In this document: positions 3,498 to 11,151 of the stretch, in pieces | Layout of the letters: each line of letters opens with the position of its first letter | How positions within the stretch are numbered: the first letter of the stretch is position 1 | IMG/VR virus record: IMGVR_UViG_2529293147_000010 | DNA from: a virus | Lineage: Duplodnaviria; Heunggongvirae; Uroviricota; Caudoviricetes | DNA: 14,700 nucleotides | Reading direction: 5' to 3' (one strand) | Notes under the pieces: generated by a model | Told to the model about the DNA's origin: nothing | Databases searched by the model: none | What the model saw: only the letters and a program-made list of their open reading frames with translations | Made by a program: the position numbers and the translations under genes

Positions 3498-3575
3498 CGC
3501 ATCCCCTCTGGCAGGCGCCAATGTTAGACTGAAATTGACGCCCGATGTTGATTATTAATAATCAGCTATGAAGTT

Positions 3576-3785
3576 TTAATTTGAATACAATGCAATTCTC
3601 GAGGACTGAAGTTTCTCGCAATTAAAATTTATCAGTTTTACTTTCTGCTCTCTGGAAACGCCTGCTTCTTTTTTACCTGAGAGCATTTTTTCGCATTCTG
3701 ATTTCGTTAGTTTAGATTTTGAATATCTTGTCCAGTTAGTAGGAGTGCCACCTTCCTTTTCAATAGTGGCGGTAATTTTATACAT
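3576..3785 (-). CDS. rcbA: Rac prophage small protein RcbA/YdaC (reported to reduce chromosome breaks)
   Basis: 69 aa from the ATG at 3785 (MYKITATIEKEGG...), GGAGG SD 6 nt upstream. The track's 93-aa version uses an upstream start. Overlaps the ralR stop by 8 nt. Confidence 0.85.
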   Translation of the reverse strand: MYKITATIEKEGGTPTNWTRYSKSKLTKSECEKMLSGKKEAGVSREQKVKLINFNCEKLQSSRIALYSN

Positions 3786-8715: not shown

Positions 8716-9204
8716 ATGTTGGATGTATTTACTCCATTGTTGAAACTTTTTGCTAAGGAGCCACTCGAAAGACTTATGTATACGATTATCATTTTTGGTC
8801 TCACTCTCTGGCTGATACCGAAAGAGTTTACTGTCGCATTCAACGCTTATACTGAAATACCTTGGCTCTTTCAGATTATCGTTTTTGCCTTTTCTTTCGT
8901 GGTCGCCATTTCCTTCTCAAGATTGCGAGCACATATTCAAAAGCATTATTCATTACTACCAGAGCAACGAGTATTGCTTCGTTTATCTGAGAAAGAAATC
9001 GCTGTATTTAAAGATTTCCTTAAAACAGGAAATCTTATTATCACTTCTCCTTGCCGTAACCCGGTTATGAAAAAATTAGAACGGAAGGGCATCATTCAAC
9101 ATCAGAGTGATAGCGCAAACTGTTCTTATTATCTCGTCACCGAAAAATACTCCCATTTTATGAAGTTATTCTGGAACAGCAGGAGTAGACGTTTTAATCG
9201 TTAG
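8716..9204 (+). CDS. sieB: SieB superinfection exclusion protein B (membrane protein)
   Basis: 162 aa from the ATG at 8716 (MLDVFTPLLKLFAKEPLERLMYTIIIFGLTLWLIP...), with two hydrophobic helices. An in-frame ATG at 8593 would add 41 aa but has no convincing SD. Confidence 0.85.
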   Translation: MLDVFTPLLKLFAKEPLERLMYTIIIFGLTLWLIPKEFTVAFNAYTEIPWLFQIIVFAFSFVVAISFSRLRAHIQKHYSLLPEQRVLLRLSEKEIAVFKDFLKTGNLIITSPCRNPVMKKLERKGIIQHQSDSANCSYYLVTEKYSHFMKLFWNSRSRRFNR

Positions 9205-9356
9205 CTTACTGTGTGCTTCTTCAACCATCGGCGCGCACCAGTTTCGGTTTTAAATGTTTTGCTTTTGGTATACGTCATGGCAGTGAACGTTCCATCCTGG
9301 TTGGGGAACACGCCGCACACCAGGGATTCGTTGTTGCCGAGGTCGATTTTTTGCAT
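9201..9356 (-). CDS. ydaF: YdaF small Rac protein, function unknown
   Basis: Not in the ORF track (51 aa). Hand translation: MQKIDLGNNESLVCGVFPNQDGTFTAMTYTKSKTFKPKTGARRWLKKHTVS. Its stop overlaps the sieB stop on the opposite strand. Confidence 0.7.
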   Translation of the reverse strand: MQKIDLGNNESLVCGVFPNQDGTFTAMTYTKSKTFKTETGARRWLKKHTVS

Positions 9357-9366
9357 TTTGCGAATC

Positions 9367-9501
9367 TCACATCTTGTTGCTACGTATAGCGACTTCTGCC
9401 TGCCAGAGATCCCAGTCGTTGCTGCGTAAAGCCTGCACAGCCTGGTTGTAAGTGATACCGCAACAATCCATCAAATACTGAACTACTTCGTAATGCACCA
9501 T
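9367..9501 (-). CDS. ydaG: YdaG small Rac protein, function unknown; first gene of the leftward operon
   Basis: Not in the ORF track (44 aa). Hand translation: MVHYEVVQYLMDCCGITYNQAVQALRSNDWDLWQAEVAIRSNKM. Strong SD AAGGGGAGAG upstream of the ATG at 9501. Confidence 0.7.
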   Translation of the reverse strand: MVHYEVVQYLMDCCGITYNQAVQALRSNDWDLWQAEVAIRSNKM

Positions 9502-9670
9502 CTTATCTCTCCCCTTAACGCCGGGTGGCGGAACTAACTACTGCACTGCAAAATTTGAATCCCGCCGTCATGTTCATACGCCTCGGGCTGGCTACTTAAC
9601 CCCTTACCACTGCCTGGTAACTCGAAGTATTGCCCGGCGTTCTGTGGGGCGGGGGGGGTGGTATGCTGGA

Positions 9671-9716
9671 ACTATAGGTAATGCCTAATTGATTGTCAAT
9701 AGGCTATGCCTAATGT
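9671..9716 (-). promoter_or_regulatory. Leftward early promoter (pL analogue) with embedded repressor operator sites
   Basis: On the minus strand: TTGACA (9699-9694), 17-nt spacer, TATAGT (9676-9671). The operator half-site TTAGGC occurs upstream of -35 and inside the spacer. The 24-nt block CATTAGGCATAGCCTATTGACAAT is near-identical to the block in the racR-ydaS region. Confidence 0.55.
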
Positions 9717-9809
9717 TTTGAGCGTAACCTAATAGGTGATGGCGACAGCAGAAAGTGATGGGGGGGTTAAATAACGGAATCCAGGAGTTTTCCGTCAGAC
9801 CATATAAGT

Positions 9810-10286
9810 TTAAGTTCCAGTTTTTGTGATGTTCTGGCTTTTCCGTTCAGATTCTAGAGCTTTCAGATACTTACCCACTTTCATTTCCATCGCTGCTATA
9901 TAGGCGCGAACATCGTGGTCAACCCAATCTGGTTCTGTAGCATTTCCAGATAACAGGAAAGCTACAATCGCTCTTATTTCATCAGAGGCTGCTTGATAAA
10001 GGTTGTTTATATCTAAAATTTCACTTTTTGTATCTGAATTGGTGGGGGTTGGTATGGGGTATTCGTTAAGCCCCCAATGCTCTGGACCAACAACATCAGA
10101 AAAGAAACGCCATAATTCTGGAAGTTTATCTTTACTTATAGAGCCTTTCTTAATCCAGTCATAAATTGATGGTGGTTGGACTTTGAAGTGGCGTGCGACC
10201 TCCGCCTTTGATTTGACGGATCCCGATGCGATTTTTTTGTTAATGGCCTGCTCTATCGCTCGGCCTAAGTCTTTACCACTAAGCAT
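9810..10286 (-). CDS. racR: RacR, prophage immunity repressor (HTH DNA-binding protein)
   Basis: 158-aa ORF (MLSGKDLGRAIEQAINKKIASGSVKSKAEVARHFKVQPPSIYDWIKKG...) with an N-terminal HTH. AGGAGA SD about 10 nt upstream. Divergent from ydaS, in a cI/cro-like arrangement. Confidence 0.9.
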   Translation of the reverse strand: MLSGKDLGRAIEQAINKKIASGSVKSKAEVARHFKVQPPSIYDWIKKGSISKDKLPELWRFFSDVVGPEHWGLNEYPIPTPTNSDTKSEILDINNLYQAASDEIRAIVAFLLSGNATEPDWVDHDVRAYIAAMEMKVGKYLKALESERKSQNITKTGT

Positions 10287-10312
10287 TGCTTAATATTCTC
10301 CTATGCGCATTA

Positions 10313-10390
10313 CATTAGGCAATCCCTACCCTTACCGCATTAGGCACAGCCTATTGACAATTGCGTTAGGCGTCGCCTAATATTTCTGTG
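10313..10390 (+). promoter_or_regulatory. Rightward early promoter (pR analogue) plus operators in the racR-ydaS divergent region
   Basis: TTGACA (10354-10359), 18-nt spacer, TAATAT (10378-10383). A perfect 15-bp palindrome TTAGGCGTCGCCTAA (10366-10380) overlaps the spacer and -10. A 13/15 palindrome TTAGGCACAGCCTAT sits just upstream of -35, with a further TTAGGC half-site at 10315. GGAG SD 9 nt before the ydaS ATG. Confidence 0.6.
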
Positions 10391-10409
10391 TGTTTTTGGA
10401 GTTCATTCG

Positions 10410-10706
10410 ATGAAAAAAGAGAACTATTCATTCAAGCAAGCTTGTGCTGTTGTCGGTGGGCAATCAGCAATGGCTAGGCTTTTAGGTGTATCACCTCCAA
10501 GCGTAAATCAATGGATCAAAGGGGTACGTCAATTGCCTGCCGAGAGATGTCCAGCAATTGAACGTGCAACAAGAGGTGAGGTTCTGTGCGAAGAACTTCG
10601 TCCTGATATTGACTGGTCATATTTACGACGTTCGGCATGTTGTTCGCAGAATATGTCAGTGAAGCAACTAAATGACAGTAACAAATCCTCATTTGATCAT
10701 ACCTGA
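10410..10706 (+). CDS. ydaS: YdaS, Cro-like HTH regulator (toxic when derepressed, by published reports)
   Basis: 98-aa ORF with an HTH segment (QSAMARLLGVSPPSVNQWIKG); first gene downstream of the pR-like promoter. Confidence 0.9.
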   Translation: MKKENYSFKQACAVVGGQSAMARLLGVSPPSVNQWIKGVRQLPAERCPAIERATRGEVLCEELRPDIDWSYLRRSACCSQNMSVKQLNDSNKSSFDHT

Positions 10707-10728
10707 AACATCAAGAGGCAAATGATTC

Positions 10729-11151
10729 ATGAAAATCAAGCATGAGCACATCGAATCAGTGTTGTTAGCCCTGGCTGCTGAAAAAGGGCAGGCATGGGTA
10801 GCCAATGCCATTACTGAAGAATATCTGCGCCAGGGGGGCGGCGAATTGCCCCTGGTACCAGGCAAGGACTGGAACAATCAGCAGAATATCTATCACCGTT
10901 GGTTGAAAGGTGAAACGAAAGCGCAAAGGGAAAAAATTCAGAAACTGATCCCTGCGGTTCTGGCAATCCTTCCGCGCGAGCTGCGTCACCGACTCTGCAT
11001 CTTCGATACCCTGGAACGCCGTGCATTACTGGCGGCGCAGGAAGCGTTAAGTACGGCAATTGATGCGCATGATGATGCAGTCCAGGCCGTTTACCGGAAA
11101 GCGCATTTCAGCGGCGGCGGGTCTTCCGACGATTCTGTCATTGTTCATTAA
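10729..11151 (+). CDS. ydaT: YdaT (cII-like regulator / toxic partner of YdaS, by published reports)
   Basis: 140-aa ORF (MKIKHEHIESVLLALAAEKGQAWVANAITEEYLRQ...), AAGAGG SD about 10 nt upstream; sits in the cII-equivalent position. Confidence 0.9.
   Translation: MKIKHEHIESVLLALAAEKGQAWVANAITEEYLRQGGGELPLVPGKDWNNQQNIYHRWLKGETKAQREKIQKLIPAVLAILPRELRHRLCIFDTLERRALLAAQEALSTAIDAHDDAVQAVYRKAHFSGGGSSDDSVIVH

Follow-up and report, generated by a model that had tools for sequence, protein, structure and literature searches.

How the leftward early genes of Rac, a prophage of Escherichia coli, are kept silent is less clear from the literature than the control of its rightward genes, where the repressor RacR acts on a mapped promoter between racR and ydaS. 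The stretch of DNA analyzed here (the window) comprises 14,700 nucleotides (nt) of IMG/VR record IMGVR_UViG_2529293147_000010; it is E. coli Rac prophage DNA, and its positions 9400-10750 are 99.5% identical to an annotated K-12 strain. A sequence-only reading of the window had proposed that racR is bracketed by two inverted, nearly identical promoter-operator cassettes through which one repressor controls both early operons, as lambda cI does at the leftward and rightward operators (OL and OR). Our analysis upholds the core of this proposal. We read the region as a lambdoid Rac immunity module in which racR lies between the published ydaS promoter and a predicted promoter of the leftward early (PL) type, a reading to which we assign a probability of roughly 0.85. 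The right half of the arrangement is published; for the left half, support comes from its conservation, its inheritance together with the repressor, and the derepression of leftward genes reported in the literature. The left cassette would accordingly be the PL/OL equivalent of Rac, the expected and apparently unmapped counterpart of the known right half.

Promoter-operator cassettes on both sides of racR

The 24-nt block CATTAGGCAYAGCCTATTGACAAT had exactly two matches in the window, one on each side of racR in inverted orientation as had been claimed, and no match in 200 dinucleotide shuffles. The two copies are identical at 23 of 24 positions, the sole difference being the T/C in the N3 spacer of CATTAGGCA(T/C)AGCCTATTGACAAT, and the longest exact run common to them here is 14 nt. 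A repeat finder joined the left and right segments into an inverted repeat of 35 nt at 83% identity. Each block had been described as a TTAGGC-N3-GCCTAA palindrome placed before a TTGACA -35 box; the site and the -35 are indeed present, but the palindrome is TTAGGC-N3-GCCTAT, an 11/12 match to the perfect form whose final T doubles as the initial T of TTGACA. In the outward direction from racR, the two cassettes share one plan: a 15-nt site with its -35, a linker of about six bases, and a second 15-nt site running into the -10, with operator centers 25-26 base pairs (bp) apart within each cassette. The second site, expected over the spacer or the -10 of each promoter, is a perfect palindrome on the right (TTAGGCGTCGCCTAA) and a 10/12 match on the left (TTAGGCATTACCTAT), where it extends over the spacer into the first 3 nt of the -10 and is centered 25 bp from the distal left site.

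A motif scan placed all five sites of at least 10/12 in the window beside racR, compared with 0.62 expected, and three of at least 11/12 compared with 0.01 expected (Table 1). Among sigma-70 matches in the window, the left promoter, TTGACA-17-TATAGT, alone reached 11/12 (0.39 expected); the same promoter scan gave the right promoter as TTGACA-18-TAATAT. The corresponding leftward transcription start would lie at about 9663-9666. A third left site, tentative and weak, may lie 19 bp from the distal operator; its TTAGGT arm is near-invariant (one position varies, in <10% of haplotypes) and its other arm variable, and in E. ruysiae the site reaches 10/12. Both palindromes were also flagged as intrinsic terminators on the plus strand. 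Both are 5-7 bp operator stems with the AT-rich -10 or linker behind them, one of the two lying within the mapped ydaS promoter, and they were rejected as by-products.

The right cassette is the published ydaS promoter-operator element and was already known. Krishnamurthi et al. (2017) described three GCCTAA/TTAGGC repeats between racR and ydaS, and RacR binding there was detected by electrophoretic mobility shift assay and by chromatin immunoprecipitation with quantitative PCR, together with repression of a ydaS reporter (PMC5700373). Wisniewska et al. (2022) located a single ydaS start by primer extension, assigned the boxes TTGACA and TAATAT, and found promoter activity lost upon mutation of the -10 (PMC9638921). 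In their DNase I footprints the ydaS promoter and O1 were protected first, at the lowest RacR concentration, and the consensus (T/A)TAGGC-N3-GCCTA(T/A) was derived for operators O1-O3, of which O3 covers the racR ATG (PMC9638921). The substrates of 271, 123, 189, and 49 bp consisted only of the racR-ydaS intergenic region and adjacent coding sequence, and neither report mentions sites downstream of racR (PMC9638921, PMC5700373).

Published expression data bear on the other side of the gene. The leftward operon is derepressed when RacR is lost (PMC6765115, PMC11014345, bioRxiv 10.64898/2026.09.06.749655), with ydaF, ydaG, ydaE, kilR, and racC rising 40-70-fold on RacR reduction (PMC6765115, PMC11014345). 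Under CRISPR interference, racR RNA fell 11-20-fold while ydaG, ydaE, kilR, racC, recET, ralR, xisR, and intR increased. A rise of the leftward genes as racR RNA falls argues against read-through from the racR promoter, and the pattern suggests that a promoter of their own lies downstream of racR and stays silent as long as RacR is there. Within racR itself a Rho-dependent terminator, trac, has been located, and it is reported to block read-through from the racR promoter into kil (PMC4150792); the leftward promoter proposed here, under RacR repression, belongs to a different pathway.

Table 1. Genes, operators, and promoter elements of the Rac immunity region (positions in the window).
Feature	Position	Strand	Basis
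Left block copy CATTAGGCATAGCCTATTGACAAT: distal operator and leftward -35	9692-9715	-	exact pattern match
Predicted distal left operator (OL2 equivalent) TTAGGCATAGCCTAT, 11/12	9699-9713	-	motif scan
-35 TTGACA of predicted leftward early promoter (PL equivalent)	9694-9699	-	promoter scans
Predicted proximal left operator (OL1 equivalent) TTAGGCATTACCTAT, 10/12	9674-9688	-	motif scan, comparison
-10 TATAGT of predicted leftward promoter	9671-9676	-	promoter scan
Candidate third left site TTAGGTTACGCTCAA, 9/12, weak	9718-9732	-	motif scan
5' leader of predicted leftward transcript, upstream of ydaG, C-rich 5' end, ~160 nt	9502-9665	-	conservation
Published operator O3 CTAAGCATTGCTTAA, 9/12, over racR start codon	10279-10293	+	motif scan; PMC9638921
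Extra right operator-like site TTAGGCAATCCCTAC, 10/12, without -35 here	10315-10329	+	motif scan, alignment
Right block copy CATTAGGCACAGCCTATTGACAAT: distal operator 10340-10354 and -35 TTGACA 10354-10359 (ydaS promoter)	10338-10361	+	pattern, promoter, and motif scans
Published operator O1, perfect palindrome TTAGGCGTCGCCTAA	10366-10380	+	motif scan; overlaps ydaS -10 TAATAT, 10378-10383
racR, repressor gene, 158 aa	9810-10286	-	ORF list, K-12 annotation, similarity
ydaS, Cro-like	10410-10706	+	ORF list, K-12 annotation; Pfam YdaS_toxin, P22_Cro
ydaT, CII-like	10729-11151	+	ORF list, K-12 annotation; Pfam YdaT_toxin
Rightward early operon, ydaS and ydaT	10410-11151	+	
ydaG	9367-9501	-	ORF list, K-12 annotation
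ydaF	9201-9356	-	ORF list, K-12 annotation; Pfam DUF1391
aa, amino acids; ORF, open reading frame.

The gene content agrees with a lambdoid immunity region. The identities of racR, ydaS, ydaT, ydaF, and ydaG were confirmed by near-identity to the annotated E. coli K-12 Rac prophage, ydaG being the name given here to an unnamed 'phage protein' ORF of that annotation. The racR gene is placed between two outward early promoters, the left one predicted and the right one experimentally mapped (PMC9638921), several operators of the same consensus cover each early promoter, and Cro-like and CII-like genes, as YdaS and YdaT have been assigned (PMC5917428, PMC9986795), lie downstream of the rightward one. 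On the opposite strand ydaG and ydaF (9201-9501, minus strand) head the leftward operon, and kilR, racC, recET, xisR, and intR come after them. RacR has an N-terminal helix-turn-helix (HTH) domain that is conserved in all homologues, and the E. coli protein carries no S24 domain (Pfam).

A hairpin, CGGAA-N10-TTCCG followed by TTATTT (9769-9794, minus strand), lies 16 nt beyond the racR stop codon, between racR and the left operators, and may be the racR terminator; in the O157-type variant its stem is CGGGAA/TTCCCG, that is, one added G:C pair formed by both arms. The approximately 25 nt that follow the stop codon (TAAACTTAT.TGGTC.GA.GG.AAAC) are kept across genera. Far from this region, the RalA antitoxin small RNA gave a full-length match at 3601-3779 on the plus strand (Rfam RF02694, 225 bits), and a promoter-like TTGACG-16-AATAAT starts at 3535, just upstream of it.

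Conservation and inheritance of the left cassette

RacR relatives were collected from species-representative genomes and IMG/VR and deduplicated to 84 distinct loci encoding 39 distinct repressor proteins. When the alignment served as query, an IMG/VR scan yielded nothing beyond near-identical E. coli copies, and the distant relatives were obtained with Proteus and Pigmentiphaga proteins as queries. One locus (L005; JARKOR010000130.1, a 5.2-kb contig) is binned as 'Candidatus Nanosynbacter sp.' and encodes a RacR 99% identical to that of E. coli; it is almost certainly E. coli DNA placed in the wrong bin. A composite cassette was defined as a site of at least 9/12, an abutting -35 of at least 5/6, and a second site 24-27 nt further on. 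By this definition both sides of the repressor gene carried a cassette in 75 of the 84 loci, the orientation was outward from the repressor gene in every case, and no composite cassette occurred elsewhere in the fetched flanks. The distal left operator was present in 79 loci. Between the start codon of the repressor gene and the right cassette the distance is 27-29 or 54 nt; the left one lies 61-1,647 nt past the stop codon, and 95-98 nt past it in the E. coli type.

The nine exceptions are of three kinds. Some reflect contig ends or a limited downstream flank (L166, L175), and others a weaker -35, among them four Proteus-type loci that have the sites with TTGATT. Three have no evident cause: L179 and L180 show no left cassette within ~2.1 kb downstream, and L009 has none on either side.

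The pairing of repressor and operator extends over considerable protein divergence. The repressors of Mixta, Morganella, and Proteus are 57-62% identical to RacR, and the beta-proteobacterial ones, of 301-371 aa, combine a RacR-like N-terminal HTH (~75% identical to RacR over 77 aa) with a Peptidase_S24 self-cleavage domain. These S24-type loci (L011, L012, and L172-L183, for example, L011:2501-3598), from Achromobacter, Pigmentiphaga, and IMG/VR contigs, have TTAGGC-N3-GCCTAA operators on both sides, and added genes separate the left cassette from the repressor. Downstream of racR, conservation across genera is confined to the cassette and the ~25 nt after the stop codon; like the operators, the left -35 and -10 hexamers are retained, facing outward.

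Variation within the E. coli type follows the same pattern. Substitutions among haplotypes are concentrated in the linkers, on the left as much as on the validated right, and no half-site, -35, or -10 position on either side is variable in at least 10% of haplotypes. In the 23 left-cassette haplotypes, the half-sites of the distal operator are near-invariant and the linkers variable. The left cassette is under purifying selection. Whether the cassettes co-evolve across Rac-like prophages had been named as a check on the proposal; the left operators do travel with the repressor, which supports the OL assignment.

The limit of the exchanged DNA falls in an informative place. Thousands of E. coli genomes match the query only to the left of ~9663-9668 and diverge beyond it. 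Among the examples listed from other E. coli genomes the leader is 84-88% identical, and 2,411 records have their best match in the 80-90% band. Two loci with leader homology and another immunity were opened. In one (L236), kilR-sieB-ydaF is 97-98% identical to Rac, the repressor is a different HTH protein of 139 aa, and AAGTAC/GTACTT-type palindromes lie downstream and upstream of its gene; in the other (L235), a ydfA-dicB operon accompanies a LexA-family repressor with GTAAC-N5-GTTAC palindromes on both sides. Operators and repressor have been exchanged as a module, as happens, together with cro, in lambdoid immunity regions, and the left operators are inherited together with the repressor. 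Since homology to these loci ends at ~9663-9668, the boundary between shared and swapped DNA coincides with the predicted leftward start.

The 5' end of the leader is strongly C-rich (ACCACCCCCCCCGCCCCAC) and looks like a Rho-loading site. A structured RNA of the put or nut kind was considered for the leader and rejected: RalA was the only Rfam family found in the window, leaving the leader unmatched, and the leader fold was not significant (z = -1.5). A G/C homopolymer-rich tract at 9644-9660, GGGGCGGGGGGGGTGG on the plus strand, varies between strains, reading ACCCAACCCGCCCC in E. ruysiae and AACCCATCCCGTCCC in the O157 type.

We infer that RacR binds and represses at the left cassette. RacR dimers on 9699-9713 and 9674-9688 (centers 25 bp apart) would block RNA polymerase at the -35 and -10, and RacR at its operators would in this way keep the polymerase off both early promoters. 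Leftward transcription would start near 9663-9666, pass through the 160-nt leader, and enter ydaG, ydaF, and the kil-recET-xis-int genes; the predicted promoter would drive ydaG and ydaF and probably continue to kilR, racC, recET, xisR, and intR. YdaS may use the left sites too, as does Cro in lambda and YdaS at the PL of prophage CP-933P. In lambda, OL helps OR through looping. A similar left-right cooperation in Rac, over ~640-690 bp, is speculative, and the wide range of distances from repressor stop codon to left cassette shows that no fixed phasing is conserved.

Several points weigh against assigning PL and OL to this site. The proximal left operator is imperfect, matching at 10/12 positions, and the transcription start at ~9663-9666 is a predicted one. 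The leftward derepression seen by RNA sequencing could be partly indirect, through YdaS/YdaT or prophage excision. In the searchable literature we found no experiment that directly tested whether RacR binds or represses at the left cassette, and no described Rac OL or PL; older or subscription work, EcoCyc, or RegulonDB may describe the promoter. In late 2023, one of the groups that had worked on RacR stated that its regulon still awaited detailed characterization, the ydaFG operon being listed as unassigned.

An alternative built on such points is that the left cassette is a relic of the right one, or a set of auxiliary RacR sites aiding the right side by looping in the way that lambda OL assists OR (PMC8630535), so that the leftward induction would be indirect. 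RacR binding at the left sites is, after all, a prediction, and the expression changes could be secondary to YdaS/YdaT expression or excision. We regard this alternative as quite unlikely, as a relic or auxiliary site would not account well for a left -35 and -10 kept across genera alongside the operators and always outward, nor for the left promoter being the best promoter match in the window. In addition, the homologous leader in the examined prophages of other immunity begins exactly downstream of the corresponding position, the analogous PL of CP-933P is active and repressed about 100-fold by its repressor, and the leftward genes go up while racR RNA goes down.

Assigning PL/OL to the left cassette points to a specific place where the missing left part of the Rac switch can be tested. 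The groups working on RacR mapped the racR-ydaS side only, and the left site would fill this gap. Through its promoter and operators it should control kilR, recET, ralR, xisR, and intR, genes responsible for the block to cell division, for RecET recombination in sbcA strains, and for excision of Rac. To a phage biologist the layout will be no surprise, and it leaves the understanding of lambdoid switches unchanged.

Origin of the left-right similarity

The near-identity of the two cassettes had been taken to set Rac apart from lambda. This part of the sequence-only reading did not hold, and the near-identity is not special to Rac. The same repeat finder, applied to 35.5-38.1 kb of lambda, paired PL/OL1 with PR/OR1 as an inverted repeat of 33 nt at 79%. 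The 24-nt near-identity follows from the make-up of the block, in essence a 15-nt operator joined to a consensus -35, with 17 of its 24 positions functionally constrained (12 in the operator arms and the 5 remaining of the -35). In the non-E. coli relatives, the mean left-right identity was 18.1/24, made up of 15.5/17 at constrained positions and 2.6/7 at the others, the latter about chance. The E. coli-type loci averaged 22.0/24 (range 19-24), with 16.85/17 and 5.2/7, respectively.

Inverted copies could also allow the racR segment to be inverted by homologous or site-specific recombination, a possibility raised from the sequence, or could be kept identical by ongoing gene conversion. Inverted 24-nt repeats do bracket racR, 622 bp apart, and in some strains (for example, L039 and L048) the identical run reaches ~25 nt. 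Efficient RecA recombination needs roughly 25 bp or more of identity, and the longest exact run here is the 14 nt given above. A synthetic inverted junction, assembled from the left flank, the repeat, and the reverse complement of the interior, was searched against every complete E. coli genome; at a coverage threshold of 80%, it was absent from all 3,701 genomes with partial matches, of which ~1,085 carry the whole region. Neither these genomes nor the 84 loci, uniform in cassette orientation relative to the repressor, provide both orientations in natural populations. No invertase or recombinase ORF adjoins the segment, the only recombinase being the integrase intR, ~6.5 kb off in the K-12 record. 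At the unconstrained positions, left-right identity was 5.16/7 within a locus versus 4.82/7 between loci; as the within-locus identity is no higher than the between-locus identity, there is no sign of continuing gene conversion, and ongoing concerted evolution of the copies was rejected on this equality. We therefore consider both inversion and ongoing conversion highly improbable.

A single past event is a different matter, and it concerns only the origin of the extra identity in the E. coli type (5.2/7 at unconstrained positions, compared with 2.6/7 elsewhere). A left-type operator/-35 unit of ~26 bp could have been copied or duplicated into the right region of an ancestor. In other genera, the right side consists of an operator over the ATG, the distal operator TTAGGCAATTCCTAT abutting the -35, and a proximal operator, and in the Mixta, Morganella, Proteus, and beta-proteobacterial loci the cassette stands 27-29 nt from the ATG with one site fewer. 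In the E. coli type the cassette is 54 nt from the racR ATG, and one added unit of ~26 bp brings the operator-like sites between the racR ATG and the ydaS -10 to four. The extra site at 10315-10329 is orthologous to the -35-adjacent operator of other genera; there the AATTCC-type site has become TTAGGCAATCCCTAC, with no -35. Next to the -35 now stands a unit of the left-operator form TTAGGCA(T/C)AGCCTAT, and most enterobacterial outgroups have the left distal operator TTAGGCATAGCCTAT, the form common to both E. coli-type copies; the beta-proteobacterial left operators have variable spacers.

The same observations allow other explanations. An extended sequence preference of RacR, for which the published monomer motif is ATTAGGC, could produce the same identity, and the alignment does not tell which unit was inserted. 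The copy event is a single inferred one drawn from about seven unconstrained positions, and because so few positions support it we propose it tentatively, at clearly less than even odds.

Joined to this is a broader and similarly tentative reading, in which the RacR HTH and its TTAGGC-N3-GCCTAA operator form an ancient portable immunity unit and E. coli-type Rac then gained its fourth right operator by copying of the left unit. If this were true, the unit would have stayed near-unchanged in gamma- and beta-proteobacterial phages alike, with the repressor's C-terminal half being replaced meanwhile, giving an SOS-cleavable S24 peptidase in some repressors and the non-cleavable Rac type in others. 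The copying would explain the unusually high left-right identity.

Comparison with known genetic switches

A close general parallel is lambda (OL/PL - rexBA-cI - OR/PRM/PR - cro). In both prophages the repressor gene lies between two outward early promoters, several operators of the same consensus cover each of these promoters, and a Cro-like gene is divergent from a repressor gene whose transcript is leaderless (PMC9638921). Operator centers are spaced by 23-24 bp in lambda and 25-26 bp in Rac, and the left-right inverted repeats are comparable, 33 nt at 79% and 35 nt at 83%, respectively. The operators themselves differ, being 15-nt TTAGGC-N3-GCCTAA sites in Rac and 17-nt sites in lambda, as do their numbers, with two clear left sites in Rac compared with three in lambda, and four operator-like sites on the Rac right. 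With no rex-like genes between them, the Rac control regions are only ~640-690 bp apart. Unlike the lambda repressor, RacR is without an S24 self-cleavage domain, and repression of racR by YdaS is reportedly absent (PMC9638921). In the Rac leftward leader, unlike in lambda, neither an N gene nor a nut site was recognized.

Prophage CP-933P of E. coli O157:H7 (PaaR2/YdaS/YdaT; PR933P, PRM933P, and PL933P) has the gene order and the YdaS/YdaT partners of Rac. Its PL has a -35 and -10 identical to those of PR, its operators OL1-3 resemble the right-side ones, and both the repressor and YdaS lower its activity about 100-fold (PMC8630535). CP-933P differs in its repressor, PaaR2, in its operator consensus of GTTTAGTAA-type repeats, and in a toxin-antitoxin pair between the repressor gene and PL. 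Its left promoter has been experimentally tested, whereas that of Rac is predicted from sequence.

The dicA-dicC region of prophage Qin resembles Rac: dicBp, a promoter like PL, lies downstream of the repressor gene, and dicCp corresponds to PR, each of the two having three operators (PMC10448788). Its repressor is likewise unconventional and is not cleaved in the SOS response (PMC10448788). Repressor family and operator sequence differ from those of Rac, and at megablast level K-12 Qin itself gave no match to the Rac leader. In one non-K-12 E. coli genome (L235), a dicB-type operon, ydfA-ydfB-ydfC-dicB, does lie behind a leader homologous to Rac 9510-9668.

A further comparison is with the published RacR operators O1-O3 between racR and ydaS. 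The right cassette is that very element (PMC9638921, PMC5700373), and the left sites match its consensus and would bind the same protein.

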